Below, piece after piece: positions 5,839 to 40,986 of a stretch of 64,000 nt of DNA. Each line of letters opens with the position of its first letter. Within the stretch, counting starts at the first letter, position 1. Source of the stretch: Candidatus Uhrbacteria bacterium (GTDB lineage: Bacteria > Patescibacteriota > Patescibacteriia > UBA9934 > GWF2-40-263); NCBI GenBank assembly GCA_037131775.1, contig JBAXQK010000002.1, positions 87,493 to 151,492 of the forward strand, in the 5' to 3' direction. The position numbers and the translations under genes are program-made. Below the pieces are notes generated by a model. That model searched no databases. It worked only from the letters and a program-made list of their open reading frames with translations, and was not told where the DNA came from.

Positions 5839-6219
5839 CTAGGTCTTGATCTCCACGTCAACCCCGGCGGGTAGGTTGAGCGACATCAGGGCGTCGATGG
5901 TCTTTTCCGTCGGGTCCGTGATGTCGATGAGGCGCTTGTGGACGCGCATCTCATACTGCTCGCGCGAGTCCTTGTGGACGAACGTGGAGCGGTTCACCGT
6001 GTACTTGCGCTTCTCGGTCGGCAACGGGATCGGACCGTGGATCTTCGCCCCAGAGCGCTCGGCGGCCTTGATGATGGTCATCGTGGCCTGGTCGATGAGC
6101 TTGTGGTCGTAGGCGCGAACGCGGATGCGGATGCGCTGTCCGTCCGCCGTCTTTTCCGTCTTTGCTGCCGCTGGTTTGGTTGCGTTTGCCACAGTGGTAA
6201 GGAAAGAACAAGCACTCAA
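5839..6219 (-). CDS. rpsJ: 30S ribosomal protein S10
   Basis: [18 protein letters not shown]...[11 protein letters not shown] is the S10 consensus; track start is TTG 3 nt after the tuf stop, real start uncertain (possibly GTG at 6190-6192). Confidence 0.9.
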
Positions 6220-6222
6220 TAA

Positions 6223-7416
<1,194 letters not shown>

Positions 7417-7597: not shown

Positions 7598-8149
7598 CTA
7601 CTCGATCGGCTCCAAATAGAACTGTTCTTCGCCAAAATCCTCGTCTTTTTGATCTTCTTTCTTCGGCTCGGCCTCTGCGGCCGACTTTTCCGGTTCCGCC
7701 GTCGCCATCCCCTTCCCCTGTTGATAATTCTCAAACTGTCGCTCCAAGTCCGTCTTTTCAACGTCCGACATCTTCGAAATGTCCCACGTCTCCGATTCCG
7801 ACCCCGCCGGACTCATCGCCTCCCAGATATCGGACGGCGGCGGTGCCTGTCTAGTTTCCCCTCCTTTTTGGAAGGAGGGGTCAGGGGTAGTCGTCGCGAC
7901 GGCAACGCTCGGCGGCCCGACCCTTCCCTCTTCCTCTTCCGGCTCGCAATCATTCCACCATTCTTCGCCGAAGCCAGCTTCAGACGGCAAGCCAGACGAT
8001 TTTTCAACGATTTCCTTAGGAACGACTAGATTTTCGTACTGTTCCAGTCCCATCACCACGTATACGTCGTCCCCGTTCGTGTCCGTCACGACCATCCGAT
8101 CGCCCGTTTTCCGTACCAAATTCAGGATGCGTCGAAGTTGTTTGTCCAT
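7598..8149 (-). CDS. Hypothetical acidic protein (Glu/Asp-rich)
   Basis: 183-aa ORF directly upstream of tuf; low-complexity acidic C-terminal half; no recognisable domain. Confidence 0.45.
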   Translation of the reverse strand: MDKQLRRILNLVRKTGDRMVVTDTNGDDVYVVMGLEQYENLVVPKEIVEKSSGLPSEAGFGEEWWNDCEPEEEEGRVGPPSVAVATTTPDPSFQKGGETRQAPPPSDIWEAMSPAGSESETWDISKMSDVEKTDLERQFENYQQGKGMATAEPEKSAAEAEPKKEDQKDEDFGEEQFYLEPIE

Positions 8150-8222
8150 ATCGGTAGGAAGATTAACAGGATTGATCGCATTTTAACGTAGAGGGACGTG
8201 AAGTCAAATCATACAGCTTGGA

Positions 8223-8251
8223 TTGACAAACTGGCTAAAATTTGTTTAAAT
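8223..8251 (+). promoter_or_regulatory. Sigma70-like promoter candidate (TTGACA-17-TTAAAT) for the Mqo-like gene
   Basis: TTGACA at 8223-8228, 17-nt spacer, TTAAAT at 8246-8251; GGAGA RBS before the ATG at 8298. Confidence 0.35.
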
Positions 8252-8297
8252 TCGCCCCTCGACGCGATAAAATCGTCGCGGTCGAAACAATCTCTCA

Positions 8298-9677
8298 TTG
8301 GAGACAGTCATGCGGATTGATTACGAGGTCGGAGTCCTCGGCGCCGGAGTCACGGGAATCGCGACGGTTCTCGCACTCATCCTGTACACGAACGTCCGGA
8401 GCATCGTGGTGTTCGAGCGTCGCCGGGGACCCGCCCAGGTGAACTCAAGCCGGGTGAACAACAGCCAGACCCTGCACATGGGACGCGCCGAGTCGAACTA
8501 CACCGAGGCGCAGGCAGTCGCGGTCAGCGAGGACGCGCAGCTGGTCGCCGGCTTCGTCGAGCGGTTCGCTCCCGAGGCGGGACAGCCGATGTCCACGCAC
8601 ATGATCGCGGTGGGCAGCGCGGAGGTCGCCGAGTTTCGGAAGCGCCACACGATGCTGTCGCCGCACTTCCCGGACCTGCGTCTGCTCGAGCGAAGCGACC
8701 TTGCGCGGATGGCTCCCAAGCTCATCGAGGGCCGCGATCCGAGCGAGCCGATCGTCTCGCTCTTCTCCGAGGCGGGCTATGCCGTGGATTTCCAGACGCT
8801 CGGCGAGGCAATGCTCGCGAGAGCCGTGTTGGAAGCGAAGCGGATGGGAAAGACGCTCGACCTGCACTTCGACACGCAGGTGGATACCGTCAGGCAGGAG
8901 AAGGACGGGTTCGTGATCGTCGCGAACGGCAGCGAGTACCTGGTGAGGACGCTCGAGATCGCCGCCGGAAACGGGTCGCTGCTGATTGCTCACCAGCTTG
9001 GGTACGGCCGCGAGTTCGCAATGCTCCCCGTCGCGGGAAGCTACTTCGTCACGAAGACGCTCCTCGACGCAAAGGTGTACGGGTTCCAAGACCCGTCGAT
9101 CCCGCTCGCGAAGGCGCACTCCGACCCCGACGTGAACGACCGCGGCGTCATGCGCTTCGGCCCAACGGCCAGGCCGATGCCGCTCCTCGAGCGCGATTCC
9201 TGGTCGACTCTCTGGGAGTTCGTCCGCGTCGGCACCCTGAGTCCGCGCGGCCTCTGGGGGCTTGCCCGCGTTCTCCTGAACCTCCACCTCCTGATGTTCG
9301 GCGCGAAGAACGTCCTGTACGAGCTGCCATACGTCGGCAAGTGGTTCTTCGCCCGCATGGAGGCCCGCAAGATCTTCCCGACGATCCGCGCGCGCGACCT
9401 CGCGCTCGCCAAGGGCGCCGGCGGAATCCGCGGCCAGCTCATCGACCTGCGCACCGGTGCGCTCATGAAGGCCGAGCGGATCCTCCCGCCGGACGAAGTG
9501 CACGCCAACTGCATCCCCTCGCCGTCCCCGGGCGCCTCGAAGTGCCTCGGCAACGCGATCGTGAGCGTCCGTAACCACATGGTCTGGCAAGGTCCCGGCT
9601 ACCAGTTCGACGAGGCCCGCATGCGCGCAGACCTCCGCCGCACCAACTACGGCCCGCGCAAGACCGCCGCGTCCTAG
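8298..9677 (+). CDS. FAD-dependent oxidoreductase, malate:quinone oxidoreductase (Mqo)-like
   Basis: N-terminal GVLGAGVTG Rossmann motif; segments SSRVNNSQTLHMGRAESNYT and MLPVAGSYFV resemble E. coli Mqo ([31 protein letters not shown]). Confidence 0.6.
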   Translation: METVMRIDYEVGVLGAGVTGIATVLALILYTNVRSIVVFERRRGPAQVNSSRVNNSQTLHMGRAESNYTEAQAVAVSEDAQLVAGFVERFAPEAGQPMSTHMIAVGSAEVAEFRKRHTMLSPHFPDLRLLERSDLARMAPKLIEGRDPSEPIVSLFSEAGYAVDFQTLGEAMLARAVLEAKRMGKTLDLHFDTQVDTVRQEKDGFVIVANGSEYLVRTLEIAAGNGSLLIAHQLGYGREFAMLPVAGSYFVTKTLLDAKVYGFQDPSIPLAKAHSDPDVNDRGVMRFGPTARPMPLLERDSWSTLWEFVRVGTLSPRGLWGLARVLLNLHLLMFGAKNVLYELPYVGKWFFARMEARKIFPTIRARDLALAKGAGGIRGQLIDLRTGALMKAERILPPDEVHANCIPSPSPGASKCLGNAIVSVRNHMVWQGPGYQFDEARMRADLRRTNYGPRKTAAS

Positions 9678-9725
9678 AGCCATCTGGCTCTTTTTTCTTT
9701 GAACAAAAAAACCGCGGCCTTTCGG

Positions 9726-10202
9726 TCACGGAGAGCGCGGGGACAGACGGATGGCGGTTGCGACTTTTTCGCCATAGAGAACCTGGTCCTGCCGTTCGCG
9801 GAGATCGCGTTCTTGCGCCAGATGACGCTGATAGTCGTCTGGCAAACCGGTCATCAGGATCGCATCCCGACGCGCGTTCAGGCGATCCCCTTCCGCAAGC
9901 AGGCGCCGTCCCTCGTCCGACAGGAACGCCAGCCATGCGGCCATCGGCGCGGAGGCGGTATTGCGGACGTACTGGAATCCGAGAACGGCGATCGTCACGG
10001 CGCCGACGAACGGAATCGCGAGAAACGCCAGTGCCCACGTTCCCATCGCGATCCACACGACCGCATAGAGGACAAGTGCCGCGACGTTCGCGACGTCGAG
10101 CGCGACCCGCAGGCGCGACGGATACGCGACCATCGGGTATGGAATCTCCCGCGCGCACCGCGGCCGCCTGTGGCCGGGAGGGTCGCAGAACGCCTGGGTC
10201 AT
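9726..10202 (-). CDS. Hypothetical membrane protein (paralog 1 of a tandem pair)
   Basis: 158 aa, hydrophobic helices; N-terminus MTQAFCDPPGHRRP resembles the upstream paralog (LQDPPGHVRP). Confidence 0.5.
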   Translation of the reverse strand: MTQAFCDPPGHRRPRCAREIPYPMVAYPSRLRVALDVANVAALVLYAVVWIAMGTWALAFLAIPFVGAVTIAVLGFQYVRNTASAPMAAWLAFLSDEGRRLLAEGDRLNARRDAILMTGLPDDYQRHLAQERDLRERQDQVLYGEKVATAIRLSPRSP

Positions 10203-10774
10203 GGCGATGCCGCGAGCGACGCGTCGTGTGCGACGACCTCGCCGGCAAGGTGTTTGCCCTGGCGGCTGAGGAGATCCTCCTCGTCGAACAACGTCTTGTT
10301 CCAGGCTGCCAACAGGCTGGCCTCCAGCTCCAGGATCTGCTGCGGGTCCAGGGCAATCGCGAGCCTTCGAAACGCCGCGAGGCTGCGCTCCCCGTTCTCG
10401 ATCTCCCTTCGTCGCTCCGAGATCCTTACCCCCTCCCGCAGCAGGGCCCAGCCGACGGGCGTGCGGGACAGCAGGAGGATTTCCTTCGGCATCCAGATGA
10501 GGTCGCCGTTCCCGCCAAGAGTTGCCGACGGGCTCACGATTACCGCGTACAGCATCACGTTCCCGATCGTCGCCCAGAAGACAATCTCGACGACGCTGTC
10601 AAACGTCACGGAACCGGTCGCACGGTACTCCGAGCGTCCGATTGTGAGCACCATGATCGTCATGGCGGCGCACGCGATCTTCGCGGCGGTCAGACGGGCC
10701 TTGTACCAGGTCAGGCGTCGGCCGCACGCATACGGCCGAACGTGTCCTGGCGGGTCTTGCAGGGGAATCGACAT
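10199..10774 (-). CDS. Hypothetical membrane protein (paralog 2); ATGA overlap with downstream paralog
   Basis: 191 aa, TM helices, shared DPPGHxRP N-terminal motif; stop overlaps the start of 9726..10202. Confidence 0.5.
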   Translation of the reverse strand: MSIPLQDPPGHVRPYACGRRLTWYKARLTAAKIACAAMTIMVLTIGRSEYRATGSVTFDSVVEIVFWATIGNVMLYAVIVSPSATLGGNGDLIWMPKEILLLSRTPVGWALLREGVRISERRREIENGERSLAAFRRLAIALDPQQILELEASLLAAWNKTLFDEEDLLSRQGKHLAGEVVAHDASLAASP

Positions 10775-10857
10775 TGAGAACCTCCGCCGAGACCCTACCC
10801 GACATTGACGATCGCGTCCAGATCTGGTTCACTTCGGCTCGCCATACGAGGGCAATC

Positions 10858-11793
10858 ATGGATCTATCTTCCGCGACACCGCCTCCCACACCTCTTCGCA
10901 TTTCCGAAACCACCCGCGTCATACCATCGACAAGCCCCGTCACGAGCGTCGCGTTCGGACCTCGCGGTAACGTCGCGATGCTCACGGGATCGCGACTGAA
11001 GGAGTACGATGCCGATCGAACGGAAACGAGGATCGTCACGAACGACCTCGGAAACCGGACGTTCGGCTACGATGCCGGTACCGGGTCCCTCCGACTCGAT
11101 CCTCCCAAGGAGGGGCGGGCCGAGGCCGTCGTCGTCACGGACTCGGACGCGCGACGCCGGCTCTCCGCCGTCGGACTGCCGTTCGCGCGAATCCAGCAGG
11201 ATACGATCCGCCTCGGCAAGGACGGGCCGGAATACGTCGCGTGGACCGACTCCAGGACGGGCCCGCTCACCGGCACCGTGTTCTCCGGGCCCGTGCGCGT
11301 CATCCCGAGCGAGGTCGTCGTGCTCGCGGAATCCGACGTCGACGCGCGCGTGATCATGGAGGGAAGTGGCATTCACACGATCCTCCGGACTCCCGACGGC
11401 AGAACCGTGGTCCGGTGCGGGTCAGAGCCGTCCGAATTCCACATTCCTCCGGCCCCGGACCTTTCCACGTGGACGTCGGTCATCCGCACCCGACGGCACG
11501 CCCTCGTATCGGGAATCTACGGTCACATCACGGACCTCCGCCATCCCTGCCGCATCGCCGAGTCTCCCTGGAAGATCATCGGCGACCCGCACCGCCTTCC
11601 CGGAGGCGCGGCGACCGAGGCGCACAACGGCTCCCGGCGCACGCTCATCTGGCTCCACGAGGACGGCTTCGACTGCCTCCCCGCCACGAGCCCGCTCAAG
11701 AGCCTCGTCCGCACCGGCCCGCGCGAGCTCACCGGCTGGCACATGCGCGGCCTCCAGCTCGTCATCCGAACGTACGCGCTCCCCCGCGACTGA
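10858..11793 (+). CDS. Hypothetical protein
   Basis: ORF 10774..11793; composition includes W/Y/H/I unlike the overlapping Arg-rich antisense ORFs; start set at MDLSSATPPP, uncertain. Confidence 0.4.
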   Translation: MDLSSATPPPTPLRISETTRVIPSTSPVTSVAFGPRGNVAMLTGSRLKEYDADRTETRIVTNDLGNRTFGYDAGTGSLRLDPPKEGRAEAVVVTDSDARRRLSAVGLPFARIQQDTIRLGKDGPEYVAWTDSRTGPLTGTVFSGPVRVIPSEVVVLAESDVDARVIMEGSGIHTILRTPDGRTVVRCGSEPSEFHIPPAPDLSTWTSVIRTRRHALVSGIYGHITDLRHPCRIAESPWKIIGDPHRLPGGAATEAHNGSRRTLIWLHEDGFDCLPATSPLKSLVRTGPRELTGWHMRGLQLVIRTYALPRD

Positions 11794-11831
11794 TCTGGTC
11801 GCGGGATTTTTATTGACACCGGATTTCCTTC

Positions 11832-12485
11832 ATGGTTTCCTATCGCTCCGGAGTCCATGCAATGCCCATCTACGACGACCCAAAGGAACCATTCAAAGCC
11901 GCCGCTTCCATCGCCGATCGCATCGACGCGGAAGGGGCGATCTCCCTCGCCGTCATCGACGTGCACCGTGCGCTCGACCTGTACTGGTCGGCGGCAAACC
12001 TGCCGTTCGCCCTCCAGCCGGAAACAACCGGTCGCGGCCACGTGCGGCAGCAGGTCGAGATCTCTCCGCTCTCGTACCTGTCCGGCGAGCACCCGATCGC
12101 CACGCTCGCGCGACGCGTCGTCGCCGACCTTTCCCGCGCGTTCGACTCGCTCGAACGGACGCCCTTTGCCACGCCGTTCGCACCGAACGACATCGTGCTC
12201 CAGCGCTACCAGCCCGGATCGATCGGCATCACGCCGCACCACGACGGAACCAGCCGCGTGAACCTCGTCTGCGTCCTCATGCTCTGGGGCGACGGCGAGT
12301 TCGCCCTCTGCGACGACCGCGCCGGAACGAATCCCCGCCCGATCTTCGCCCCGCCCGGTCACCTCATCCTCATGAAGGCCCCCGGCTTTCGAGGGGCCGA
12401 CCTCGGACCCTTCCACCTCATCTCCCGCATCTCCCGAGGCCGACTGATCCTTGGAATCCGCGAGAGACGCTTCCTGCCGCGTTAA
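11832..12485 (+). CDS. 2OG-Fe(II) oxygenase superfamily-like protein
   Basis: Putative HxD...H facial triad: ITPHHDG (about res 146-149) and PPGHLILM about 47 aa later. Confidence 0.45.
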   Translation: MVSYRSGVHAMPIYDDPKEPFKAAASIADRIDAEGAISLAVIDVHRALDLYWSAANLPFALQPETTGRGHVRQQVEISPLSYLSGEHPIATLARRVVADLSRAFDSLERTPFATPFAPNDIVLQRYQPGSIGITPHHDGTSRVNLVCVLMLWGDGEFALCDDRAGTNPRPIFAPPGHLILMKAPGFRGADLGPFHLISRISRGRLILGIRERRFLPR

Positions 12486-12515
12486 ACACGCGGTTTTTTG
12501 TTATACTGTCCCCGT

Positions 12516-13685
12516 ATGCCCAAACATCTCGCCGACTACGGCTCCGCGCCCGTCGACTTCGTCCGCGGAAACGGGTCCTACGTGTACGACAAGAACGGAA
12601 AGAAGTTCCTCGATTTCCAGACCGGCTGGTGCGTGGGCACCGTCGGATGGAAGAACAAGGAGATGGCCGAGGCGATCTCGGCCCAGGCGCGCGAGGGGTT
12701 CCATGAGCCGCCGTGGTTTCGCGTCGAGCGGCACGAGACGTTCGCGTCGCGCCTCGTCAAGCTCGCGCCGGGAAAGCTCAACCGCGTGTTTCGCGCGTGC
12801 TCAGGGTCCGAGGCGGTCGAGTTCGCCATCAAGGCCGCGCGCGCCGCGACGAAGAAACAGACGGTTGTGACGATCGAAGGCGTGTACCACGGCCACACGT
12901 ACGGTGCGGGATCGGTCGGAAACGCGTTCGGCGGAGTGCTGGAACCGTGCGACGGATTCGCGAAGGTACCGATGCCGAAGAATCAAAAGCAGGAAATCGA
13001 GACGCTCCGCGAGATCGAGGCGCTGTTCGCGCAGGGCGACGTCGCGGCATTCCTGTCCGAGCCGGTATGGACGAACGCCGGATGCTTCATCCCCTCGCCT
13101 GCCTTCTACCCCGCCGTCCAAACGCTTTGCCGCAACTACGGCGTCCTCCTTGCCATGGACGAAGTGGCCACCTGCATGGGCCGGTGCGGCAAAATGTTCG
13201 GATCGGAACTCTGGGGAATCGAGCCCGACATCGTCACGCTCGGCAAATCGTTCACGGGAGGGTACGCGACCATGGCCGCGACGCTGGTCACGGAATCCGT
13301 CTTCAAGAATGCCCGCGGCATCCCGTCGCATCCCACGTTCGGCTGGATGTTCCAGGACCTGGCCGCGGTCGAGAAGAACGTCGAGATCATCATCCGGGAC
13401 CGCCTCGACGAGAACGCGGCGGGCGTCGGCGCCTACCTGCTCGACCTTCTCAAGCCGCTCGAGTCGCTCAAAAAGGTCAAGGAAGTTCGCGGCATCGGCA
13501 TGGTCCTCGCCATCGAGTTCCACCTCCCCGTCGCCGTCCTCGTCGCCGCGAAATGCTACCGCGCCGGCCTGGTCGTCGAGTTCACCGATTCCAAGACCCT
13601 GTTCCTGAGCCCAATGCTCAACCTGAAAAAGTCCGACGCGCGCAAGGGAGCCGAGATCATCCGTGCCGCGTGCGGCCTGAAATAA
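12516..13685 (+). CDS. Class III pyridoxal-phosphate-dependent aminotransferase
   Basis: DEVATCMGRCGKMFG (DEVqTGfGRtG motif), TLGKSFTGG (PLP lysine), GSEAVEFAIKAAR; start at MPKHLADYG. Confidence 0.85.
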   Translation: MPKHLADYGSAPVDFVRGNGSYVYDKNGKKFLDFQTGWCVGTVGWKNKEMAEAISAQAREGFHEPPWFRVERHETFASRLVKLAPGKLNRVFRACSGSEAVEFAIKAARAATKKQTVVTIEGVYHGHTYGAGSVGNAFGGVLEPCDGFAKVPMPKNQKQEIETLREIEALFAQGDVAAFLSEPVWTNAGCFIPSPAFYPAVQTLCRNYGVLLAMDEVATCMGRCGKMFGSELWGIEPDIVTLGKSFTGGYATMAATLVTESVFKNARGIPSHPTFGWMFQDLAAVEKNVEIIIRDRLDENAAGVGAYLLDLLKPLESLKKVKEVRGIGMVLAIEFHLPVAVLVAAKCYRAGLVVEFTDSKTLFLSPMLNLKKSDARKGAEIIRAACGLK

Positions 13686-13689
13686 TCCT

Positions 13690-14511
13690 ATGATCGACGA
13701 ATCCTCCCTTCCCGCCATCGATCGACTGTCCATGAACGACCGCGAAATTCTCTCCCGGCCTGAGATTCGCGGCGTCCTCTCCGGAATAAAGCCGGCCGCC
13801 TTCGAGGACTGGCACGGGACAATCCAGAATCTCCAGGGAATCCGCGACTATCTGTCGTCCATTGCAATCGACGCGCTTGTGACGCCACACATCATTATGA
13901 ACCGCGAAACCGTCGCGAAGCGAATCGCGGACGAGCCCGAGCTCGCGCGGCTTGCCGGCTGGCAGGACGGCGATTCGGTCGACCGGCTCGCGGAAAAATT
14001 CGAAGCGCTCGGTACCGCGAGCGAAAACGACGTCCTGCGCGGATTCCTTGTCGGATTTCCCGCGTCGGCCATCCTTGGATTTCAACGAAAGGAGGTCCTG
14101 GAGAAACAGGGCGTTCAGACGAGCCCGACCGAGTTCTTCAATCCGAAGTTTTCCGATCGCAATCCAAGCGCCGCCATCGACGAGGAAGGTCGCGCGCGGC
14201 TGGCAGCGTTGGCGGCAGAGTACGCCAACCTGCCGAGACTGAAATGGGAACGCGGCCCGGACCGTCCCACGGCCGAGGCGGTCGATGCGCTTCTCGACAG
14301 CCACCGCCAGGACATCTCGGATCTCTACCAACGCCTCTGGAACCTGTCGACATCGGACGCGGATGCGCTGGCATGGAGGAAAACCGTCGCGATCAAGGAT
14401 AGAAACGGTGGAAACCTGTATGAGTTCTCAGCCTTTGGAAAGGACGGCGACAAAGCCCCGGACGTGCTTGCCCTGCAGGAAAAGGCTCGAAACGCCAAGA
14501 GTCCAATTTAG
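13690..14511 (+). CDS. Hypothetical protein
   Basis: 273-aa ORF starting 5 nt after the aminotransferase stop (operonic); chosen over antisense ORF 13657..14331. Confidence 0.45.
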   Translation: MIDESSLPAIDRLSMNDREILSRPEIRGVLSGIKPAAFEDWHGTIQNLQGIRDYLSSIAIDALVTPHIIMNRETVAKRIADEPELARLAGWQDGDSVDRLAEKFEALGTASENDVLRGFLVGFPASAILGFQRKEVLEKQGVQTSPTEFFNPKFSDRNPSAAIDEEGRARLAALAAEYANLPRLKWERGPDRPTAEAVDALLDSHRQDISDLYQRLWNLSTSDADALAWRKTVAIKDRNGGNLYEFSAFGKDGDKAPDVLALQEKARNAKSPI

Positions 14512-14552
14512 CTGATCTTAGCTAAAAAACTGTCAATCAACCCCCAAAACGC

Positions 14553-14581
14553 TTGACGGAATCCCGGAAGTCTGATAGTAT
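14553..14581 (+). promoter_or_regulatory. Sigma70-like promoter candidate (TTGACG-17-TAGTAT) with no downstream ORF
   Basis: TTGACG 14553-14558, 17-nt spacer, TAGTAT 14576-14581. Confidence 0.3.
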
Positions 14582-14587
14582 CTCTTC

Positions 14588-14771
14588 TTGTGAGGCCAGA
14601 CAGCTAGCACTGGCAAGGATTCAAAGGTATCCCAAAAGGAACATTGTCACAGGAAAGTAGAAAGATAACACGCAGGAACTAGTAACACTGTTTACAGCCT
14701 GAACTGGTCTTCTCAACTTCTGAATCAAAAAGAAATCGCCTCTCCGCTTGTCGGGGAGGCGATTTTGTTGG
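14588..14771 (+). ncRNA. Candidate small non-coding RNA (about 180 nt) bounded by a promoter and an intrinsic terminator
   Basis: AT-richer 230-nt gap between convergent genes; promoter at 14553-14581; hairpin ATCGCCTC-TCCGCTTGTCGG-GGAGGCGAT plus TTTGTTGG at 14735-14771; no ORF; family not recognised. Confidence 0.25.
14733..14771. terminator. Bidirectional rho-independent terminator
   Basis: 9-bp stem AATCGCCTC/GAGGCGATT flanked by A-run and T-run; also serves minus gene 14814..15572. Confidence 0.5.
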
Positions 14772-14813
14772 TCGCGGGGAAAAAAGAAAATCCAGGCCGT
14801 CTGGGCCTGGAAG

Positions 14814-15572
14814 CTACGGGGTCGCGGCAAGGAGCGCGCGCTCGACGAATCGCCTGGCGAGATCCGGGTCGATGCGATCGTGGCGGCGGATGTGGCGGGA
14901 CGCGACGAGCGACAGCGGGTCGAAGTCGCGGACGACCCGCGTGAATCCGGCGTCGAACCGTTCCGCGGAAAGTCCGCCGGCGAGTCCGTACGGGACCATC
15001 ACGCCCGCCTGACGGAGAAATCGAAGCACCAGCACGGCGCGGGCGTTGTCGATCGGAGCCCCGCACCCGGCGGCGAGGTCGAACATCACGGAGTCCACGA
15101 CGTCGATCCGCACGTACTCCGCGACGCGTTTCGCCACGCGCATCGGATCTTCGCTCAGGTCCATAAAGCACTCCTCCGACACCCACAGCACGAGACGAAC
15201 GTTCGGCCACTGGCGACGGAACTGCACGAGCGTGTCCCGCTTCGGCCAGACGGCGTGAAGGATGAGGACCGAGACGTTCGGGCACACGCACATCAGGTCG
15301 TAGAGCTGCTCCGCGAGCGACTGTTCCCACGACGGCGTGAAGTGTACCGCGATATCTGCCTTGTGACCGCCGGGCGTACACAGCTCCGCGAGCGTATCAC
15401 GCGCCGGGAGGAACGGACGGCTTGCCGCGCCATGCAGCGTCCACCAGTCCGCGTACGTCCCAAGCAGCAGGCGGTGCGATCGTTCCGCGAAGATCGGCGC
15501 GAGCTCCGACAGCCGCGCGAGCTCGTCCGGGCACTGCAGGCCCATCAGTCCAACGAATGAGGAAGAATTCAT
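14814..15572 (-). CDS. Phosphoribosylanthranilate isomerase (TrpF)-like TIM-barrel protein
   Basis: C-terminal pattern IDVVDSVMFD..AAGCGAPID..PYGLAGGLSAERF resembles TrpF D..LLDS..GGtG..fdW..LAGGL.peNV; weak, no N-terminal KICG. Confidence 0.35.
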   Translation of the reverse strand: MNSSSFVGLMGLQCPDELARLSELAPIFAERSHRLLLGTYADWWTLHGAASRPFLPARDTLAELCTPGGHKADIAVHFTPSWEQSLAEQLYDLMCVCPNVSVLILHAVWPKRDTLVQFRRQWPNVRLVLWVSEECFMDLSEDPMRVAKRVAEYVRIDVVDSVMFDLAAGCGAPIDNARAVLVLRFLRQAGVMVPYGLAGGLSAERFDAGFTRVVRDFDPLSLVASRHIRRHDRIDPDLARRFVERALLAATP

Positions 15573-15640
15573 GCAATCTCCGGCTGGCGTACCCTACGGG
15601 TTCCGGAGCAATCTGTCAATCCCATGACAGCCGCGAGGTA

Positions 15641-16654
15641 TCAGCCGACAATCGCTTCCATCTTCCCCATCTTCTTTTGAAGATCGCGATAGAGCGCCAG
15701 CTGCCCCCTCGCCCGCGCCAGATTGTGCGCGCGGCGCGACGGATAGCGCGCGTCGTCCCAGCCGAAATAGCTGTCCTCGAAATAGTCCGCGAGAAAGCGC
15801 GAGGCGAGCTCGAGCGTGATCGTCGCGACGGACTTCGGGACGAGCTTGCGCTCGCGGGCGGAGATGAATCCGTCGGCAGCCTTGGCATACCCGTTCCATC
15901 CCGCCTTGAAGATGTCGAGCCGGAACGTATTCTTCGCGTCGTCCTCCTGCATGCCACACCACGACCGGAACATGTCGCCGGTCTCGACGAGCAACGGTCG
16001 TCGATTGCACGTGTCGAGGTCGACGACGCCGGAGGCGCGACCCTTGTCGTCGAAGAGGAGGTTCGAGATCTTCGGGTCACCGTGGATCGCGCGCAACGGA
16101 AGCGACGCGGGGAGCAGGACCTTGTGCATCTCGTTCGCGACGAACGCCACGTCCTCGGCCACGTCGTCGAGCAGCGGGTTCTTCCAATTCTTCTTGACGA
16201 CCTTCACGAACGTCGCGAAGATCTTTTCCGTCTCGTGCAAAATCTTCTTCGACTTAAAGTCGTACTTCAGTCCCGCCATCGTCTTGTGCAGCCGCCCGAA
16301 CATCGCCCCGGCCTCGCGTGCCATCTTCGCGTCACGAACGGCGGTGAACGTCGCGCCCGGCAGGAACGTCTGCACGCGCCAAACCCTTCCCTCCGCGTCC
16401 TTGGCGAGGACCTGCAGCTTCTTCGTGACGACGGTCTTCGGCGCCGGGAATCCCTTGTCGTTCAGGAACGTCGTGACGACGAAGAAGTCCTTCCCAATCG
16501 CAGCCGAAGCCAGCACCGGGTGCAGGCGCTGGGCAATGAAGGTTCCGTTCTTGGCCGAAATCTGATATGTTTGGTGAATCAAACCGATGGAAATCGGCTT
16601 AACAGACTTGATCGCCCCGAAATCATACGCGTCGACAATGTCTTGTGGAATCAT
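15641..16654 (-). CDS. Aminoglycoside/homoserine-kinase-type phosphotransferase (APH family)
   Basis: IHGDPKISNLLFD (HGD catalytic loop) and VVDLD (DxD) motifs; 337 aa. Confidence 0.8.
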   Translation of the reverse strand: MIPQDIVDAYDFGAIKSVKPISIGLIHQTYQISAKNGTFIAQRLHPVLASAAIGKDFFVVTTFLNDKGFPAPKTVVTKKLQVLAKDAEGRVWRVQTFLPGATFTAVRDAKMAREAGAMFGRLHKTMAGLKYDFKSKKILHETEKIFATFVKVVKKNWKNPLLDDVAEDVAFVANEMHKVLLPASLPLRAIHGDPKISNLLFDDKGRASGVVDLDTCNRRPLLVETGDMFRSWCGMQEDDAKNTFRLDIFKAGWNGYAKAADGFISARERKLVPKSVATITLELASRFLADYFEDSYFGWDDARYPSRRAHNLARARGQLALYRDLQKKMGKMEAIVG

Positions 16655-16667
16655 ATCCGGGTAGTTC

Positions 16668-17252
16668 GTGACTTTCGTAATATTATTCGTACTTCGTGAC
16701 CCTGTGGATTATATCACCCCCGCGCTCTCTGTCACTCTCCTCGTGCTGCTCGCCGTTTCCGCCGTCGGCCTCTGGTACGTCATCCAGCTCATGCTTCCTC
16801 TCATCCACTACGGAGGCCCGTACGTGGTCTCCCGCTCGGAACACGTCGACGCGATGATTCGCCTGGCGAAGCTGACGCCCGCCGACCGCATCACCGACCT
16901 CGGCTCCGGCGACGGCCGCATCGTCATCGCCGCAGCCTCGGAGGGAGTCGCTGACGCCCTCGGAATCGAGATCAATGGCGCGCTCGTGAAGGCGTCCGAG
17001 TTTTCCTCCCACCGCCTCGGCCTCAAGAACGCCCGCTTCGTCCGCGAGTCCTTCTGGAAATCAAACATCTCGGACCGCACGGTCGTATTCCTCTACCAGG
17101 TCCCATACGCGATGCGAAAGCTCGAGACAAAACTCCAGGAAGAACTCCCGCCCGGCGCGCGCGTGATCTCGAACGACTTCAAGTTTGTAAACTGGAAACC
17201 CATCGAGGAGCACGGGAGAATCCGCATCTACGTAAAAAGCGAGGTCGCCTGA
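16668..17252 (+). CDS. Class I SAM-dependent methyltransferase with N-terminal TM helix
   Basis: ITDLGSGDGRIVIAAA (motif I, GxGxG); GTG start at 16668 uncertain, downstream in-frame GTGs possible. Confidence 0.6.
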   Translation: MTFVILFVLRDPVDYITPALSVTLLVLLAVSAVGLWYVIQLMLPLIHYGGPYVVSRSEHVDAMIRLAKLTPADRITDLGSGDGRIVIAAASEGVADALGIEINGALVKASEFSSHRLGLKNARFVRESFWKSNISDRTVVFLYQVPYAMRKLETKLQEELPPGARVISNDFKFVNWKPIEEHGRIRIYVKSEVA

Positions 17253-17264
17253 CCCCGCTTTTTT

Positions 17265-18428
17265 CTATTCCTTAGTAACCGGCATCTTCGAGATCTCCTT
17301 CATCTCGGCCCGCAGCTGATCGGCGAGACCCGCGAGTCGCGCTGGGTCGGCGTAGGCGGCCGCTTCCCGTGCGATCCGAGACGACGCGACGAACTCAGGC
17401 CGATCGTCGGGACGCAGGATTCGCTCGGCGTCCTTCCGACAGTCCGACAACATCTCGTCGAGTTCGCCATGGGCGTTTCCCCAGTGGGGCGGACCAGGCC
17501 AGAAGTCCGCGGCGGTCGCGAGCTCTTCCGCGAGCACGTCGATCTCGGCGACCTTGGCGTACAGCTCGACGGACGACGGTCCCTTCGTCCCCCGCTTGAA
17601 CGACGGGAACGCGCGCTTCGCCGCCTCAATGGCCGTCACAACGCGAGACATCAGGTCGACGGGAACGGGCTCGGTCGCGCAGAGAATCTGCATGTGCGCC
17701 AGAACGCCCTCCAGGTCGCCGACGAGGTCCCTTCCGTTTCCAATGGCCGCAAGCGCGCGGTCAATTTCTTTTTTCATGGTGACACCCCGCGCCTTGGCGC
17801 CGAGCGCGTCACGCAGCCGCGTCAACAGCATCTCATGAACCGGATCAATCCGATGTTCCAACGCCGAATGACTCACGATGGTCTCGCTTAGTTCCAAAAC
17901 GTCCGTCGATCCTGGAATTTCCGACCATGGAAACCGGTCTTCCGGCATGTCCTCGGCGTCAGAGACGAAGGTCGTCATGACACGCGCCGACGGAAACGCC
18001 TCCTGAAATACCCGCGTTGCCGTTTCCAGCGTTTTGCCCGTCGCAGACAGATCGTCGACGATCATCACGTCCTTGTCCGCAAACTGGCTGCCGAACAGCC
18101 TTCGCAGCTCCGCGACCGCGTCCGGAGAAACAGAACGCGGGGCATCGATCGCCAGCCTCCCTCCTTCCGGCTTCCCCACGTTCATAAACCGAATCTGCGG
18201 ACGGTTCAGCATCCCATGATTTTTCTTCCACACCTCGCGGACCAACCACGAGATCGGCCGTGCGCTCTTGTCGAGAAACACGAGCGCGTGCGTCCCGTTG
18301 TGGTATGCCGCCTCGACGATCGCCTCCGTCCGGTCGCGCAGCAGCCGACGAACATGCGAATCGCGCACGATCCGAAACTCGACGGACTTCGCGGTTTCTT
18401 GCTCGACGGACGGACGATTCTCGTTCAT
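17265..18428 (-). CDS. Phosphoribosyltransferase-domain protein with unknown C-terminal domain
   Basis: VMIVDDLSATGKTLE is the type I PRTase PRPP-binding motif; start at MNENRPS. Confidence 0.6.
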   Translation of the reverse strand: MNENRPSVEQETAKSVEFRIVRDSHVRRLLRDRTEAIVEAAYHNGTHALVFLDKSARPISWLVREVWKKNHGMLNRPQIRFMNVGKPEGGRLAIDAPRSVSPDAVAELRRLFGSQFADKDVMIVDDLSATGKTLETATRVFQEAFPSARVMTTFVSDAEDMPEDRFPWSEIPGSTDVLELSETIVSHSALEHRIDPVHEMLLTRLRDALGAKARGVTMKKEIDRALAAIGNGRDLVGDLEGVLAHMQILCATEPVPVDLMSRVVTAIEAAKRAFPSFKRGTKGPSSVELYAKVAEIDVLAEELATAADFWPGPPHWGNAHGELDEMLSDCRKDAERILRPDDRPEFVASSRIAREAAAYADPARLAGLADQLRAEMKEISKMPVTKE

Positions 18429-18586
18429 ACGGAGACAGTTTAGCAAAAGAGACAAGATCCAAGAAGAGCAGGAGACAAGGAATGTTCAGGGATCAAAGAA
18501 AAGAGTCCAAGGATTTGACCCCTGGACCTTAATCTTATAATCTCCCTGTTTCTTGTCTTCTTGAATCTTGTCTCTTTCTTCTCTTG

Positions 18587-20686
18587 TTATGTCACGCGGC
18601 GGTTCATTCCGGAGCGCTTCTCGATGATTTCCTTCGAGACGTTGCTCGGGACCTCCTCGTAGTGGTCGAACTGCATCGAGTAGGACCCGCGGCCCTGCGA
18701 GATGGAGCGGAGCTGGGTCGCGTAGCCGAACAGTTCGGCGAGCGGGACGAAGGCGGTGATGACCTTGACGCCGGAGCGCTCGGTCATCTCCTGGATCTGT
18801 CCGCGCTTGGAGTTCAGGTCGCCCACGATGGTTCCCATGTACTCCTCCGGCATGACGACTTCCACGCTCATCATCGGCTCGAGCAGGATCAGGCCGGCCT
18901 TGCGGGCCGCGTCCTGGAACGCCATGGAACCGGCGATCTTGAACGCCGCCTCGTTGGAGTCCACGTCGTGGAACGATCCGTCGGTCAGCGTCACCTTCAC
19001 GTCGAGCACCGGGTAGCCCGCGAGCACGCCGCGGTCGGCGGCCTCGTGCGCTCCCTTGTCGATCGCGTTCCAGAACTCGCGCGGCACCGAGCCGCCCTTG
19101 ATCTCCTCGGAGAACTCGTAGCCCTTGTTGGCCTCGTTCTTCTCGAGGCGGATGCAGGCGTGGCCGTATTGTCCGCGCCCTCCCGTCTGCTTGATGTACT
19201 TTCCTTCTCCCTCGGACATGTCGGCCTTGATCGTCTCGCGGTACGACACCTGCGGGGCGCCCACGTTGGCCTCCACCTTGTACTCGCGCTTCATGCGGTC
19301 GACGATGATGTCGAGGTGCAGCTCGCCCATGCCGGAGATGATGACCTGGTTGGTCTCGTCGTCGGTGCGGACGCGGAAGGTCGGATCCTCTTCGGCAAGT
19401 CGCTGAAGGGCCGTTCCCATCTTTTCCTGGTCGACCTTCGTCTTCGGCTCGATGGCGATGGAGATGACCGGCTCCGGGAACACGATGGCCTCGAGGATCA
19501 CCGGGTTGTTCTCGTCGCAGAGCGTGTGTCCCGTGAACGTGGACTTGAGACCCACGGCCGCGGCAATTTCTCCGGCGAACACCTCGTCGATTTCCTCGCG
19601 CTTGTTGGCGTGAAGGCGGACGATGCGGCTGATGCGCTCGCGCTCGCCGTTGAGCGGGTTGAGCACGTACGATCCGGCCTTCACCGAGCCCGAGTACACG
19701 CGGAAGAAGGCGAGCTTGCCCACGAACGGGTCGGCCGCGATCTTGAACGCGAGGGCGGAGAACGGGGCGGAGTCCGAGGTCGGTCGCTCGACGCGCTCCT
19801 CCAGGTTGTCCGGGTTATGGGCGACGACGGACGGAATGTCCAGCGGGCTTGGGAGGTAGTCGACGATGGCGTCGAGCATGAACTGCACGCCCTTGTTCTT
19901 GAGCGCGGATCCGCACAGCACCGGGATGATCTCCACCTTGATGGTGGCCTTGCGCAGCGCGACCTTGAGCTCTTCGATTCCCGGCTCCTCGCCGGCGAGG
20001 TACTTGGTCATGAGCGCGTCGTCGGTGGCGCAAATCGCTTCGATGAGACGGCCGTGGTAGTCGGCGGAGATCGCCTTCATGTCCTCCGGAATCTCCAGCT
20101 CGTCGATCACCTTGCCCTGGTCGTCGCGGTAGTAGAACGCCTTCATCTTGAGAAGGTCGACGACGCCGACGAAATCAGCCTCGGTTCCGATCGGAAGCTG
20201 GAGCGGGTACGCTTTCTTGGTGAGACGGTCGGCGATCGACTTCAGGTCCTTGTAGAAGTCGGCGCCCGTTCGGTCGAGCTTGTTGATGAAGCAGAGGCGC
20301 GGCACGTTGTAGTCGTCCGCATAGCGCCAGTTGGTCTCGGACTGCGGTTCCACGCCGGCGACGCCGTCGAAGATGACGCACGCGCCGTCGAGCACGCGAA
20401 GGGAGCGCTTCACCTCAACGGTGAAGTCGATGTGTCCCGGGGTGTCGATCAGGTTCATGCAGTGGTCCTTCCAGAAGCAGGTGGTGGCGGCGGCGGTAAT
20501 GGTGATGCCGCGCTCGCGCTCCTGTTCCATCCAGTCCATGACAGCCTCTCCCTCGTGCACCTCGCCAATCTTGTGCGAGCGGCCGGTGTAGAAAAGCACG
20601 CGCTCGGAAACCGTGGTCTTTCCGGCGTCGATGTGCGCGATGATTCCGAAGTTGCGCGTTTTTTCAAGTGGGTATTGTCGGGGCAT
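18587..20686 (-). CDS. fusA: Elongation factor G
   Basis: 699 aa; AHIDAGKTT, full EF-G domains. Confidence 0.97.
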
Positions 20687-20768: not shown

Positions 20769-21236
20769 TTATCTCGCAAAGTGAGCAAACGCGCGGTTGG
20801 CTTCGGCCATGCGCTGGACGTCGGCCTTCTTCTTCACGGCGTCGCCCTCGTTCTTGGACGCGGCGATGAGCTCGTCAGCAAGCTTCTGCGCCATCGGGCG
20901 GCCCTTCTTGGCGCGCGTGGCAATGAGGATCCAGCGGGCGGCCAGCATGAAGCGGCGCTCTCCGCGAACCGGCATCGGAACCTGGTAGTTGGCTCCTCCC
21001 ACGCGCTTGGACTTGACCTCGAGCGTCGGCATGACGTTCTTGAGCGCGTTCTCGAAGGTTTCCACCGGGCTCGACGAGGTCTTCTTCTCCATGATGTCGA
21101 AGCAGTCGTAGATCACGCGCATCGCGGTGCTCTTCTTGCCGTCGTGCATGATGAGGTTGGTGAAGCGTGCCACGTTCTCATTGTTGAACTTCGGGTCCGG
21201 GGTAATCTGACGGCGTACAGCTTGCTTTCCGCGCAT
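20769..21236 (-). CDS. rpsG: 30S ribosomal protein S7
   Basis: MRGKQAVRRQITPDPKFNNENVARFTNLIMHDGKKSTA is the S7 consensus. Confidence 0.95.
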   Translation of the reverse strand: MRGKQAVRRQITPDPKFNNENVARFTNLIMHDGKKSTAMRVIYDCFDIMEKKTSSSPVETFENALKNVMPTLEVKSKRVGGANYQVPMPVRGERRFMLAARWILIATRAKKGRPMAQKLADELIAASKNEGDAVKKKADVQRMAEANRAFAHFAR

Positions 21237-21335: not shown

Positions 21336-21788
21336 CTACTTTTTCTTGCCAGCGCCCTTCGCGACCGCTCCGGCCTTCGGCTTCTTCTGGCCGTAGAGCG
21401 AGCGTCCCTTGCGACGGTCAGCGACACCCTGGGTGTCGTAGACTCCGCGAACGATGTGGTAACGAACGCCAGGAAGATCCTTCACGCGTCCGCCGCGGAT
21501 GAGCACGATGGAGTGCTCCTGCAGGTTGTGCCCTTCTCCCGGGATGTAGGCCGTGACCTCCGTGCCGTTGGAAAGGCGCACGCGCGCGATCTTGCGGATG
21601 GCGGAGTTCGGCTTCTTCGGCGTCATGGTCGTGACCTTCACGCACACGCCGCGCTTGAAGGCGGATCCCTTCGAAAGCATGGTGCGCTTGCGGTGCAACG
21701 AGTCGAGCGCGTACTGCAGCGCCGGGGACTTGGACTTAACGTTCTCGGTGGAGCGACCCTTGCGGATCAGCTGGTTCATCGTTGGCAT
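21336..21788 (-). CDS. rpsL: 30S ribosomal protein S12 with Lys-rich C-terminal extension
   Basis: [12 protein letters not shown]...PKKPNSA, 150 aa. Confidence 0.95.
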
Positions 21789-27111: not shown

Positions 27112-27259
27112 CCCAGGGACTTTAGTCCCGTCCTCCGAGTCGCGACGTTCCCACGATCGGGACTAAAGTCCCTGGGAATACGAGACGCCACTAAAGTGGC
27201 TGGGAAAACGATTTCATAGGGACTTTAGTCCCGTGCGCTTCCCAGGGACTTTAGTCCCG
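27112..27259. repeat. REP array (5 copies/variants of CCCAGGGACTTTAGTCCCG) 3' of the RAYT gene
   Basis: Copies at 27112-27130 (+), 27158-27176 (-), 27188-27204 (variant), 27218-27233 (+), 27241-27259 (+); GGGAC/GTCCC arms form a hairpin. Confidence 0.8.
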
Positions 27260-27791
27260 CCGTGATCCGCGTCGGCAATGACTCAAAGAATTCCTTTTCT
27301 CCCAGCGACATCACTGACGAGATAACATCATCCGCATACTCCTTCCCCTCTCGTACGATCACATAGCGATACGACGAAAATGGCCAGTCGAATAATTCCT
27401 GAAGATCCGTCACGTCGCCATGCTTCAAAGGATTGCCAATGACATATCCACGAACGCGATCGAGCAACGATTCCTTCATCGGAACGAATACGTGATATTC
27501 ACCCCAAACCGGCGACGCGATGTCCACCTGCCGTTTGACCTGAAACGAAACGCCGCCGTTAATCCACTGCAACATCGTAGGGATTACGTCGCTCTTCCCA
27601 AAGCTTCCAAGAAAATGATAGTGGTCCTCCATGATTCCATAGTCGGGACACTCGACGCCGAATTTGACGAACGCTTCCTCGAGGCGAACGCGAAGAAGTT
27701 CGCGGAGGGCGAGATCCTTGAAGATCGGTCGGTGACGATCCGTCGGGACGGTGATGAAGTACCAGGAATCGAGGAGGAAGAAACGAGACAT
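27225..27791 (-). CDS. REP-associated tyrosine transposase (RAYT, IS200/IS605 Y1 family)
   Basis: YFITVPTDRHRP, HuH motif EDHYHFLG, C-terminal YVIGNPLKHGDVTDLQELFDWPFSSYRY (compare E. coli RAYT YIYINPVKHGWVKQVSDWPFSTFH); both gene ends overlap REP copies. Confidence 0.8.
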   Translation of the reverse strand: MSRFFLLDSWYFITVPTDRHRPIFKDLALRELLRVRLEEAFVKFGVECPDYGIMEDHYHFLGSFGKSDVIPTMLQWINGGVSFQVKRQVDIASPVWGEYHVFVPMKESLLDRVRGYVIGNPLKHGDVTDLQELFDWPFSSYRYVIVREGKEYADDVISSVMSLGEKEFFESLPTRITAGLKSLGSARD

Positions 27792-33571: not shown

Positions 33572-33889
33572 TTACCGCTCCACCGGATACCCCGCCGCCG
33601 CCCATGCCGTCACGCCGCCCTCGACGCTCGACGCGTCCGGCAGGCCGATCTCGCTCAGCCGCGCGCAGACCCGCCCGCTGCGCCCGCCGGTCAGGCAGTG
33701 GACGTACACGTGGTCGTACGCGCGCAGCGCCTCCTCGTAAATCGCCAGGCCGCCGATTGGTCGGTTGATGGCCGACGGAATGTGCCCTTCGGCGTATTCG
33801 TCCGGCGATCGGACGTCGATCAGGATGCTCTTCCCCGGCGCCGGATTCTCAAGGCGTTCCTTCAGTTCCTGGACGGTAATGGTTTTCAT
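33572..33889 (-). CDS. Rhodanese-domain sulfurtransferase
   Basis: 105 aa, active-site loop [11 protein letters not shown]. Confidence 0.8.
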
Positions 33890-36072: not shown

Positions 36073-36289
36073 AACGAAAACGCGCTCCCAAAAAGGGAGC
36101 GAATAAAATAAATTATCTTTCCCCGACGCGGGCGAGAATTGGCACCGGTTTCGACGACGCGTCGAATGGTTGCCGGCAGGTCACAGGGCTCGTTCCCTCG
36201 CTGCGCTCTGGATAGGATCGATTGTACGCACGCGCATGATACCACGCCCGTTGACAATTCGTCCACGAGGCGATACTCTCCCGGCGCAC

Positions 36290-40910: not shown

Positions 40911-40986
40911 TGGTCGAGCCAGCGGGACTTGAACCCACGGCCTCTTGCCCCCCAGGCAAGCGCGCTACCAACTGCGCCATGGCTCG
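40911..40986 (-). tRNA. tRNA-Pro (anticodon GGG), CCA-encoded
   Basis: Revcomp reads CGAGCCA-TG-GCGC-AGTTGGTA-GCGC-G-CTTGC-CTGGGGG-GCAAG-AGGCC-GTGGG-TTCAAGT-CCCGC-TGGCTCG-A-CCA; 7-bp acceptor, T-loop TTCAAGT, anticodon loop C-T-GGG-G-G. Confidence 0.85.

Follow-up and report, generated by a model that had tools for sequence, protein, structure and literature searches.

A content-variable gene block, probably a flexible genomic island, between fusA and tuf in a Candidatus Uhrbacteria-related genome

The stretch of DNA analyzed here (the window, 64,000 nucleotides from a Candidatus Uhrbacteria bacterium) contains the str and S10 ribosomal genes, which are split between fusA and tuf by a block of accessory genes. 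The fusA-tuf interval holds exactly 12 non-ribosomal genes (g01 to g12) on both strands and spans ~10.9 kb. The limits of the block, 7598-18455, are the outer edges of the open reading frames (ORFs) of the first and last genes, with the longest ORF start used for g12. Genes were delimited by frame analysis of the GC content at third codon positions (GC3) and by reference to L001, an identical metagenome contig of 90 kb on which genes had been called independently. These two lines of evidence and the Pfam matches of the flanking genes confirmed that 12 non-ribosomal genes split fusA from tuf, as a preliminary description of the sequence had reported. The block is probably a flexible genomic island whose position, the junction of fusA with g01-tuf, is conserved while its content of independent accessory genes varies. 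As judged by elongation factor G (EF-G), the source organism is a Patescibacterium near Candidatus Uhrbacteria (EF-G 76% identical); the closest EF-G proteins among 185,579 species genomes were from Candidatus Uhrbacteria (74-76% identity), and those of other Patescibacteria came next. The flanking genes are the following.

rpsL, 21336-21788, minus strand: ribosomal protein S12 (Pfam)
rpsG, 20769-21236, minus strand: ribosomal protein S7 (Pfam)
fusA, 18587-20686, minus strand: EF-G, 699 aa (Pfam GTP_EFTU, EFG_III, EFG_IV and EFG_C); conserved upstream anchor
tuf, 6223-7416, minus strand: elongation factor Tu (EF-Tu), 397 aa (Pfam GTP_EFTU, D2 and D3; L001 gene call); conserved downstream anchor
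rpsJ, 5839-6219, minus strand: ribosomal protein S10 (Pfam), with L3 and L4 next

Between the two anchors lie the following genes and one structural feature.

g01, 7598-8149, minus strand: 183 aa; Pfam PhdYeFM_antitox match, E 9.5e-6, below cut-off
g02, 8310-9677, plus strand: 455 aa; flavin adenine dinucleotide (FAD)-dependent oxidoreductase of the Mqo / L-2-hydroxyglutarate oxidase group (Pfam)
g03, 9726-10202, minus strand: 158 aa; predicted two-helix membrane protein (hydrophobic windows, residues 31-79)
g04, 10199-10774, minus strand: 191 aa; predicted membrane protein (hydrophobic segments; L001 gene call)
g05, 10858-11793, plus strand: ~311 aa; function unassigned; terminator-like hairpin at the stop codon
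g06, 11832-12485, plus strand: 207-217 aa (start probably 11862); divergent 2-oxoglutarate (2OG)/Fe(II) oxygenase (motif and AlphaFold model)
g07, 12516-13685, plus strand: 389 aa; class III (omega-amine) aminotransferase fold dependent on pyridoxal phosphate (PLP) (Pfam Aminotran_3, PF00202, E 7.5e-76)
g08, 13690-14511, plus strand: 273 aa; clade-restricted alpha/beta orphan (AlphaFold predicted local distance difference test score, pLDDT, 89.1; predicted template modelling score, pTM, 0.82)
g09, 14814-15572, minus strand: 252 aa; divergent TIM-barrel-like protein resembling TrpF (AGGLS phosphate-site motif)
g10, 15641-16654, minus strand: 337 aa; APH-fold kinase, NahK-like (Pfam APH, E 1.4e-25)
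g11, 16704-17252, plus strand: 182 aa; class I S-adenosylmethionine (SAM) methyltransferase with an N-terminal transmembrane helix (hydrophobic windows, residues 1-35)
g12, 17265-18428, minus strand: 387 aa; phosphoribosyltransferase (PRTase)-like N-terminal domain and a variable helical C-terminal half (PF00156, E 1.3e-5, just below cut-off)
fusA-g12 spacer, 18440-18585, minus strand: near-perfect hairpin of ~140 nt (fold -67.4 kcal/mol, z -7.95)

The preliminary description had regarded fusA and tuf as normally contiguous, which fails in this phylum. The gap between the two genes was 111-6655 bp in ~23 genomes of the Candidate Phyla Radiation (CPR), with at least 500 bp in most of them (0.5-6.6 kb in most sampled genomes), compared with 12-196 bp in 21 non-CPR genomes, indicating that the gap is a trait of the phylum. 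In the CPR phylum, a break after fusA is the general state of the str operon, with g01 preceding tuf, and the largest version of this phylum-wide gap was found in the clade of the window.

Gene content among relatives was compared by tblastn of all window genes on 90 loci, combined with gene calls, and the relatives were ranked by EF-G identity. Their fusA-tuf intervals contained the following.

L004 and L005 (EF-G 98.9%): the same block including g12; kinase gene apparently broken in L004
L089 (EF-G 99.4%): g12 and g04 missing; extra genes are a second APH/choline-kinase-like gene, a 421-aa gene and a 468-aa SdiA-regulated-like gene
L092 (EF-G 97.7%): g02, g08 and g12 missing; g05 in two copies
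L093 (EF-G 92%; 7.9 kb): methyltransferase, kinase, g09 and aminotransferase, with otherwise different genes
L094 (EF-G 91%; 13.4 kb): methyltransferase, two kinases and g09, with a 748-aa NUDIX protein and others
L097 (EF-G 89%, over 199 C-terminal residues only): g12 homologue directly 3' of fusA, then the methyltransferase
L098 (EF-G 85%): only the kinase, the aminotransferase and g01
L009 and L010 (EF-G 75-76%): only the methyltransferase, the kinase and g01
L011 (EF-G 74%): methyltransferase and g01, on a short contig
L012, L013 and L036 (EF-G 63-74%): g01 with other genes (unrelated ones in L012 and L013) or with no extra genes; at 63%, g01 alone

In every relative examined, the extra genes sit between fusA and g01-tuf, and g01 is the constant neighbor of tuf and forms the downstream edge of the variable zone. 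g12, g02, g08, g03 and g04 varied in presence among genomes with EF-G proteins 97.7-99.4% identical, and the FAD oxidoreductase, the 2OG oxygenase, the two orphans, the membrane paralogues and the PRTase protein came and went among genomes at 91-99% EF-G identity. The content of the island is nested: g01 has the oldest spread, followed by the methyltransferase and kinase, then by g09 and the aminotransferase, and finally by a changing set. As had been proposed, the block is accessory; set against bacteria in general it is also specific to its lineage, and its content differs between relatives. Its origin in a single insertion was not borne out, with g01 present in several CPR lineages and the methyltransferase and kinase in Uhrbacteria at 76% EF-G identity. 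The preliminary description had contrasted an accessory block with a conserved core of uniform composition shared by relatives; the latter picture applies at the genus level and breaks down at the family level, where content differs. A metagenome scan with g10 returned one locus.

Compared with the congeneric L004, the block was 85-91.5% identical at the nucleotide level and the flanks were 88.6-90.6% identical. This flank-level divergence indicates vertical inheritance of the block since those species split. Identity to L089 was uneven, with 95% for g10, 91% for g02, 88% for g07, 75% for g09, 68% for g08, 63% for g06 and ~52-53% for g05, and g07 was nearer to L089 (88%) than to L004 (82%), whereas its neighbors g05, g06 and g08 showed the opposite. 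Such uneven divergence is suggestive of allele replacement by recombination and falls short of proof.

The strands alternate among the block genes. Promoter-like sites numbered 13, against 2.6 expected, and some of them precede tuf (7591-7564), g01, g02 and g10. Overall, terminator-like hairpins were not enriched (14 versus 14.5 expected), and six of them are located exactly at the stops of g02, g03, g05, g06 and g09 and after fusA. Because of the strand alternation, the promoter-like sites and the hairpins at stops, the block looks like many small transcription units. The 22-nt arms of the spacer hairpin at 18440-18585 are unique in the window, and a terminator-like stem-loop (18528-18504) lies inside it; this hairpin probably represents the end of the rpsL-rpsG-fusA transcript. 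The fusA-g12 spacer is much shorter in the congeneric L004. Homologues of some block genes occur outside fusA-tuf contexts: a g08 homologue lies near lepA, a g09-like gene is found elsewhere in L013, and g06 homologues are found after alkA-ogt, beside a GAF protein or fused to FolB.

We examined the individual genes, three of which (g01, g05 and g08) had been left without a description. g01 appears to be an uncharacterized conserved partner of the tuf locus. It is small and acidic, and its PhD/YefM-like N-terminal domain is followed by a disordered linker and, in the alignment, by a conserved C-terminal motif, FGEEQFYLEP(I/V)E; a middle motif, DIWExMKPAG..ETWD, is also conserved. Its C-terminal peptide is FGEEQFYLEPIE. 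In L009-L013, L036, L092-L094 and L098, homologues immediately precede tuf, and candidates in the same position were picked by eye in L017 (an unclassified Patescibacterium) and L048 (a Saccharibacterium). The analysis brought out g01 as a separate candidate, a widely conserved tuf-adjacent protein. Coordinates of g01-like copies are as follows.

L012: 6810-7442
L017: 13782-14186
L048: 4394-4882
L092: 19626-20174

The labels given earlier to g02 (Mqo-like FAD oxidoreductase), g07 (class III aminotransferase), g10 (APH kinase) and g11 (SAM methyltransferase) all agreed with Pfam or NCBIfam matches. g02 matched Pfam Mqo (E 1.1e-17; 64 bits against a gathering score of 27) and DAO (E 3.4e-15), and its PDB matches were 9dm1 (Mqo) and 8w75, which we take to be Drosophila L2HGDH. 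The NCBIfam Mqo models, with cut-offs of 425-850, gave 67.5 bits or less, and LhgO gave 51.6 bits against 299. Because these scores are under the curated cut-offs, g02 belongs to the wider fold family and to neither the Mqo nor the LhgO enzyme family. A promoter-like site at 8223-8252 and a terminator-like site at 9676-9691 predict that g02 is its own transcription unit. By tblastn, g02 was seen only in the window and L089.

That g03 and g04 are tandem paralogous membrane proteins on the minus strand was upheld by BLASTP (E 1e-5), by an N-terminal DPPGH motif in common and by the substitutions relative to L089, where g03 is 77% identical and most differences (50/91) fall at the third codon position. 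A 369-aa plus-strand ORF (9699-10808) was rejected as a gene, its arginine-rich translation, the gene calls and the codon-position substitutions all favoring g03/g04. g05 had no match in Pfam, NCBIfam, PADLOC or PHROGs. It is fast-evolving, with ~52-53% identity to L089, 47% to L092 and 19-25% to distant copies in L092 and L094, and it adjoins g06 wherever both were seen. No homology was found between g05 and the gene after g06 in L095.

The label of g06 as 2OG-Fe(II) oxygenase-like was supported by an invariant HxD...H...R motif and by an AlphaFold model resembling the PHD family. H136, D138, H195, R204 and R210, which comprise the HxD...H iron triad and a basic 2OG-binding residue, were invariant in 19 sequences. 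The model (pLDDT 87.9) showed a double-stranded beta-helix of the prolyl-hydroxylase (PHD/P4H) type, and the top Foldseek matches in PDB were PHD2/EGLN1, Pseudomonas PPHD (4j25) and 6n1f (E ~1e-7; template modelling (TM) score 0.55-0.66), with the top 50 consisting of PHD2, PPHD, 6n1f and PolD. Sequence identity to these structural matches was 11-17%, Pfam 2OG-FeII_Oxy_2 matches were weak, and no sequence-level match to any solved 2OG oxygenase was found. On an unrelated contig (L095, 6381-9826), alkA and ogt are followed by a homologue of g06, apparently as an operon for alkylation repair, and protein P0186 combines another g06 homologue with a dihydroneopterin aldolase (FolB) domain in one fusion. 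The alkA-ogt context points to an activity other than prolyl hydroxylation of a protein such as EF-Tu.

g07 matched PF00202 over its full length (255.8 bits, residues 17-391), with the presumed PLP lysine in the motif LGKSFTGG. Its best PDB matches were putrescine aminotransferase, omega-transaminases and acetylornithine aminotransferase (E ~1e-42), and its NCBIfam equivalog scores were all under their cut-offs. The gene is present in L004, L089, L092, L093 and L098. g08 had 12 homologues, all at least 49% identical; Foldseek found no structural relatives at E <= 0.001 in PDB or BFVD, and a profile search of PDB sequences was negative. A dehydroquinate-synthase-like or TrpF-like identity of g08 was rejected, the single-sequence match (E 0.41) being lost with a profile and no structural neighbor being found.

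The N-terminus of g09 was set at 252 aa from the alignment of its homologues, 12 of which are close. Its designation as a TrpF-like barrel was weakly supported: the profile matched one TrpF only, that of P. furiosus (PDB 4aaj; E 0.003, a weak match), over the C-terminal 105 residues including AGGL, whereas none of the 14 family members matched Pfam PRAI. In T. maritima TrpF the catalytic Cys is in strand 1 and the catalytic Asp in strand 6. The strand-1 consensus of g09, FIGLMGxQ, has no Cys at the expected place, and a conserved D in MFDLA aligns with lLD of 4aaj.

The only PDB matches of g10 were N-acetylhexosamine 1-kinases (4ocu, 4wh1 and 4ocj; phmmer E 3.9e-29, residues 13-336), and the catalytic motifs HGDPKISN and VVDLD are intact. 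g10 is the most persistent island gene, 48% identical in L009 and L010 and 72-95% identical in closer relatives. In L004 the NahK-like kinase gene is in two pieces (14400-15565), owing to a pseudogene or an assembly error; it is intact in L005 and L006. Pairs of an amino-alcohol kinase and a phospho-lyase are known from hydroxylysine and aminopropanol systems. Such a pairing of g10 with g07 was rejected, g10 having matched only NahK in PDB and the two genes never being co-transcribed.

g11 matched PDB 5bxy (E 4.6e-21) and Sulfolobus aKMT (5fa8 and 5jwj), and scored 79.9 bits (E 1.8e-22) with NCBIfam NF041081, under the cut-off of 200; it is probably a protein-lysine methyltransferase of the aKMT/PrmA type. 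It is kept beside fusA in L009, L010, L011, L089, L092-L094 and L097. The PRTase label of g12 was sustained by the sub-threshold PF00156 match of the window protein, by matches in 15 of its 26 relatives and by the 373 representative relatives of the N-terminal domain. g12 is present in the window, in L004-L007 and in L097 (38% identity) and absent from L089, L092, L093 and L094, and a homologue, P0014, is also located directly after fusA. In L094, the 366-aa gene that follows fusA showed no homology to g12. None of the NCBIfam scores listed for proteins of the block reached its cut-off.

In this lineage, the gap filled up in layers. The pair of methyltransferase and NahK-like kinase came first, and the TrpF-like barrel and the class III aminotransferase came second. 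The third layer is a changing one, made up of g08, the PRTase protein, the membrane paralogues, the FAD oxidoreductase and the 2OG oxygenase together with g05. Homologous recombination in the near-invariant flanks presumably helped genes to be gained and lost and alleles to be replaced, and the genes would be separate transcription units with unrelated jobs instead of one pathway. Family resemblance suggests that g10 may phosphorylate a scavenged N-acetylhexosamine-type sugar at C1 for nucleotide-sugar/cell-wall salvage, that g07 and g02 may carry out amine/aldehyde and 2-hydroxy/2-oxo acid interconversion, and that g06 and g11 may hydroxylate and methylate protein or other macromolecular targets.

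Several points weigh against a flexible island of independent genes. g05-g08 are tightly spaced on one strand, and a functional link among them is possible; similarly, the methyltransferase and kinase may have stayed with fusA over the long term because they are functionally connected with translation, and not as neutral hitch-hikers. The comparison covered only ~10 related loci, mostly metagenome assemblies, and because of this origin some of the content differences could be assembly or binning artefacts. The biochemical roles suggested above are all drawn from distant family resemblance, and recombinational exchange is deduced from uneven identities and not from phylogenies.

The preliminary description had interpreted the genes as a single small-molecule modification or self-resistance pathway acting on a sugar- or nucleoside-like compound, which we now regard as unlikely. 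The enzyme classes are indeed those of amino-sugar/aminocyclitol tailoring (oxidoreductase, aminotransferase, kinase, methyltransferase, oxygenase, PRTase and isomerase-like barrel), g05-g08 are close together on one strand, and g10 resembles a sugar anomeric kinase. However, Pfam and NCBIfam revealed no polyketide synthase, nonribosomal peptide synthetase, cyclase, scaffold-forming or sugar-nucleotide enzyme, glycosyltransferase or exporter in the block, and thus no core enzyme of such a pathway. The strands alternate, many genes have their own promoter-like and terminator-like sites, and terminator-like hairpins occur even between g05, g06 and g07. Co-occurrence is independent as well: g02, g08 and g12 are missing where g06, g07 and g10 are kept, L098 has the kinase and aminotransferase only, the kinase gene is apparently broken in L004, and homologues are found in unrelated contexts. 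Nor was a resistance family matched, with g11 scoring 20.9 bits against the 16S rRNA methyltransferase WarA (cut-off 305) and no APH(3'), APH(6) or similar aminoglycoside-kinase model among the NCBIfam matches listed for g10.

Equally improbable, in our judgment, is that the island or its conserved core constitutes a translation-factor modification module, in which g11, g10 and g06 would act on EF-Tu, EF-G or ribosomal proteins and be tethered to their substrates; g06 would then act on EF-Tu in the manner of PPHD, and g01 would use its acidic C-terminal peptide to bind the ribosome or EF-Tu. The prolyl hydroxylases matched by the g06 model include PPHD of Pseudomonas, an enzyme that hydroxylates Pro54 of EF-Tu (PMC6235002), and g11 is closest to protein-lysine and L11 methyltransferases. 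The methyltransferase-kinase pair stays beside fusA, and g01 beside tuf, over large evolutionary distances, and g01 combines a PhD-like domain with a conserved acidic C-terminal peptide. On the other hand, g10 is closest to a sugar kinase and not to a protein kinase, the fold likeness of g06 to PHD is at ~12% identity and a TM score of ~0.6, and one g06 homologue is in an alkA-ogt DNA-repair context. Furthermore, many relatives that have fusA and tuf lack g06, such a module has no place for the TrpF-like protein, the FAD oxidoreductase and the aminotransferase, and linkage alone says little in a phylum whose gene order is strongly conserved.

A higher GC content had also been suspected in the block. 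The difference was marginal only (0.626 in the block and 0.613 in the rest of the window); per-gene GC and GC3 are within the range of the window, and the tetranucleotide correlation of the block with the rest of the window is 0.984, compared with 0.971-0.984 for other 10.9-kb segments. GC3 and tetranucleotide usage are therefore native, and the three tests ruled out a foreign composition. No integrase or transposase Pfam domains were found in the block, no flanking direct repeats were found at it, and no tRNA is in or at it, the only tRNA of the window being at 40911. A recent foreign island, inserted on a mobile element into a contiguous fusA-tuf operon, is thus very improbable and largely refuted: an interval much larger than in other bacteria, the few homologues of some genes (12 each for g08 and g09) and an IS200-like transposase elsewhere in the window would favor it, but it is countered by the indistinguishable composition, by the lack of mobility genes, tRNA and repeats, by the block shared with congeneric genomes at flank-level divergence and by the nested subset in relatives down to 76% EF-G identity. 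A phage origin was rejected, PHROGs giving no match except a marginal methyltransferase match, as was a defense system, PADLOC giving nothing significant except that the PRTase domain of g12 weakly resembled ShosT (E 2.4e-4).

Other features were observed elsewhere in the window. A DUF4407 membrane protein (22789-24312, minus strand), encoded upstream of an M50 peptidase and rpsL, is hypervariable, with 88% identity in L004 and only 25-31% in L089, L092, L094 and L098, in which the neighboring M50 peptidase is 80-93% identical. The DUF4407 gene looks like an allele replacement at a second variable spot. The IS200-like Y1 transposase ORF (27225-27791, minus strand; GC 0.52) is a strain-specific insertion, since the congeneric L004 has other ORFs at that place. 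A reverse transcriptase gene (62538-63584, minus strand; Pfam RVT_1, E 3.4e-22) is directly upstream of infB with a 4-bp overlap, and no template/variable repeat pair of a diversity-generating retroelement was found near it in the part of the element inside the window. A SAM riboswitch (36110-36218, minus strand; Rfam RF00162, 51 bits) lies directly before metK (35029-36072, minus strand), and a 221-aa protein (33886-34551, minus strand) joins a Vsr mismatch endonuclease domain to a GIY-YIG nuclease domain. The lysyl-tRNA synthetase (55663-57285, minus strand; Pfam tRNA-synt_1f) is of class I, which is the archaeal-type enzyme.

The results show that Patescibacteria have repeatedly gained genes at the fusA-tuf junction, inside the str-S10 array that is used as a fixed phylogenetic marker for CPR, and one Uhrbacteria-related clade has at this junction an 8-13 kb island with fast turnover. 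A gap in a ribosomal operon, however large, is not by itself proof of foreign DNA or of a biosynthetic cluster. CPR genomes are tiny, and a locus that keeps gaining and exchanging enzymes is therefore a good place to search for lineage-specific functions of an episymbiotic lifestyle.

Several known systems resemble parts of the block. Aminoglycoside producers carry pairs of an APH and a 16S rRNA methyltransferase, and g10 and g11 are likewise divergent neighbors; however, no resistance model was matched, g11 is membrane-anchored and of the aKMT/PrmA type, and g10 is NahK-like. E. coli csiD-lhgO-gabDTP encodes a 2OG-dependent glutarate hydroxylase, an L-2-hydroxyglutarate oxidase and a class III aminotransferase, and the same three superfamilies, centered on 2-oxoglutarate, are near each other here (g06, g02 and g07). 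The block differs in that g06 has no Pfam CsiD match, g02 is far under the LhgO cut-off (51.6 versus 299 bits), no semialdehyde dehydrogenase or permease is found, and the three genes are apparently separate transcription units that do not occur together in L092, L093 or L098.

With the PHD-type prolyl-4-hydroxylases (PPHD, 4j25), g06 shares the predicted beta-helix, the HxD...H triad and the basic 2OG-binding residue, and its gene is located between fusA and tuf, PPHD acting on EF-Tu; it differs in having no sequence-level match (11-17% identity) and a homologue in an alkylation-repair operon. g10 aligns over its full length with NahK (PDB 4ocu and 4wh1; E 4e-29) and keeps the HxDxxxxN and DxD motifs. 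AmgK is the anomeric N-acetylmuramic acid/N-acetylglucosamine kinase of the AmgK-MurU cell-wall salvage route (PMC5371407). An analogous role for g10, suggested by NahK and AmgK-MurU, would be to channel scavenged amino sugars into the synthesis of nucleotide sugars or cell wall. Unlike those systems, the block has no uridylyltransferase partner of the MurU or GalT type, and the kinase is apparently disrupted in one relative.

The block as a whole is most like the flexible islands flanked by core genes, such as O-antigen/capsule loci and the "replacement" islands of marine bacteria. It differs from surface-polysaccharide loci in having no glycosyltransferases, flippases or other hallmarks. Like flexible islands, it has a fixed position between conserved genes, with content and allele divergence that differ among close relatives, and it is native in composition and has no integrase or tRNA; unlike them, it lies inside the str-S10 ribosomal array. 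Variable islands at fixed positions between core genes are already well known, and what is new here is an example in an unusual place, the str-S10 array, of a poorly studied phylum, together with three individually interesting genes, g08, g06 and g01.

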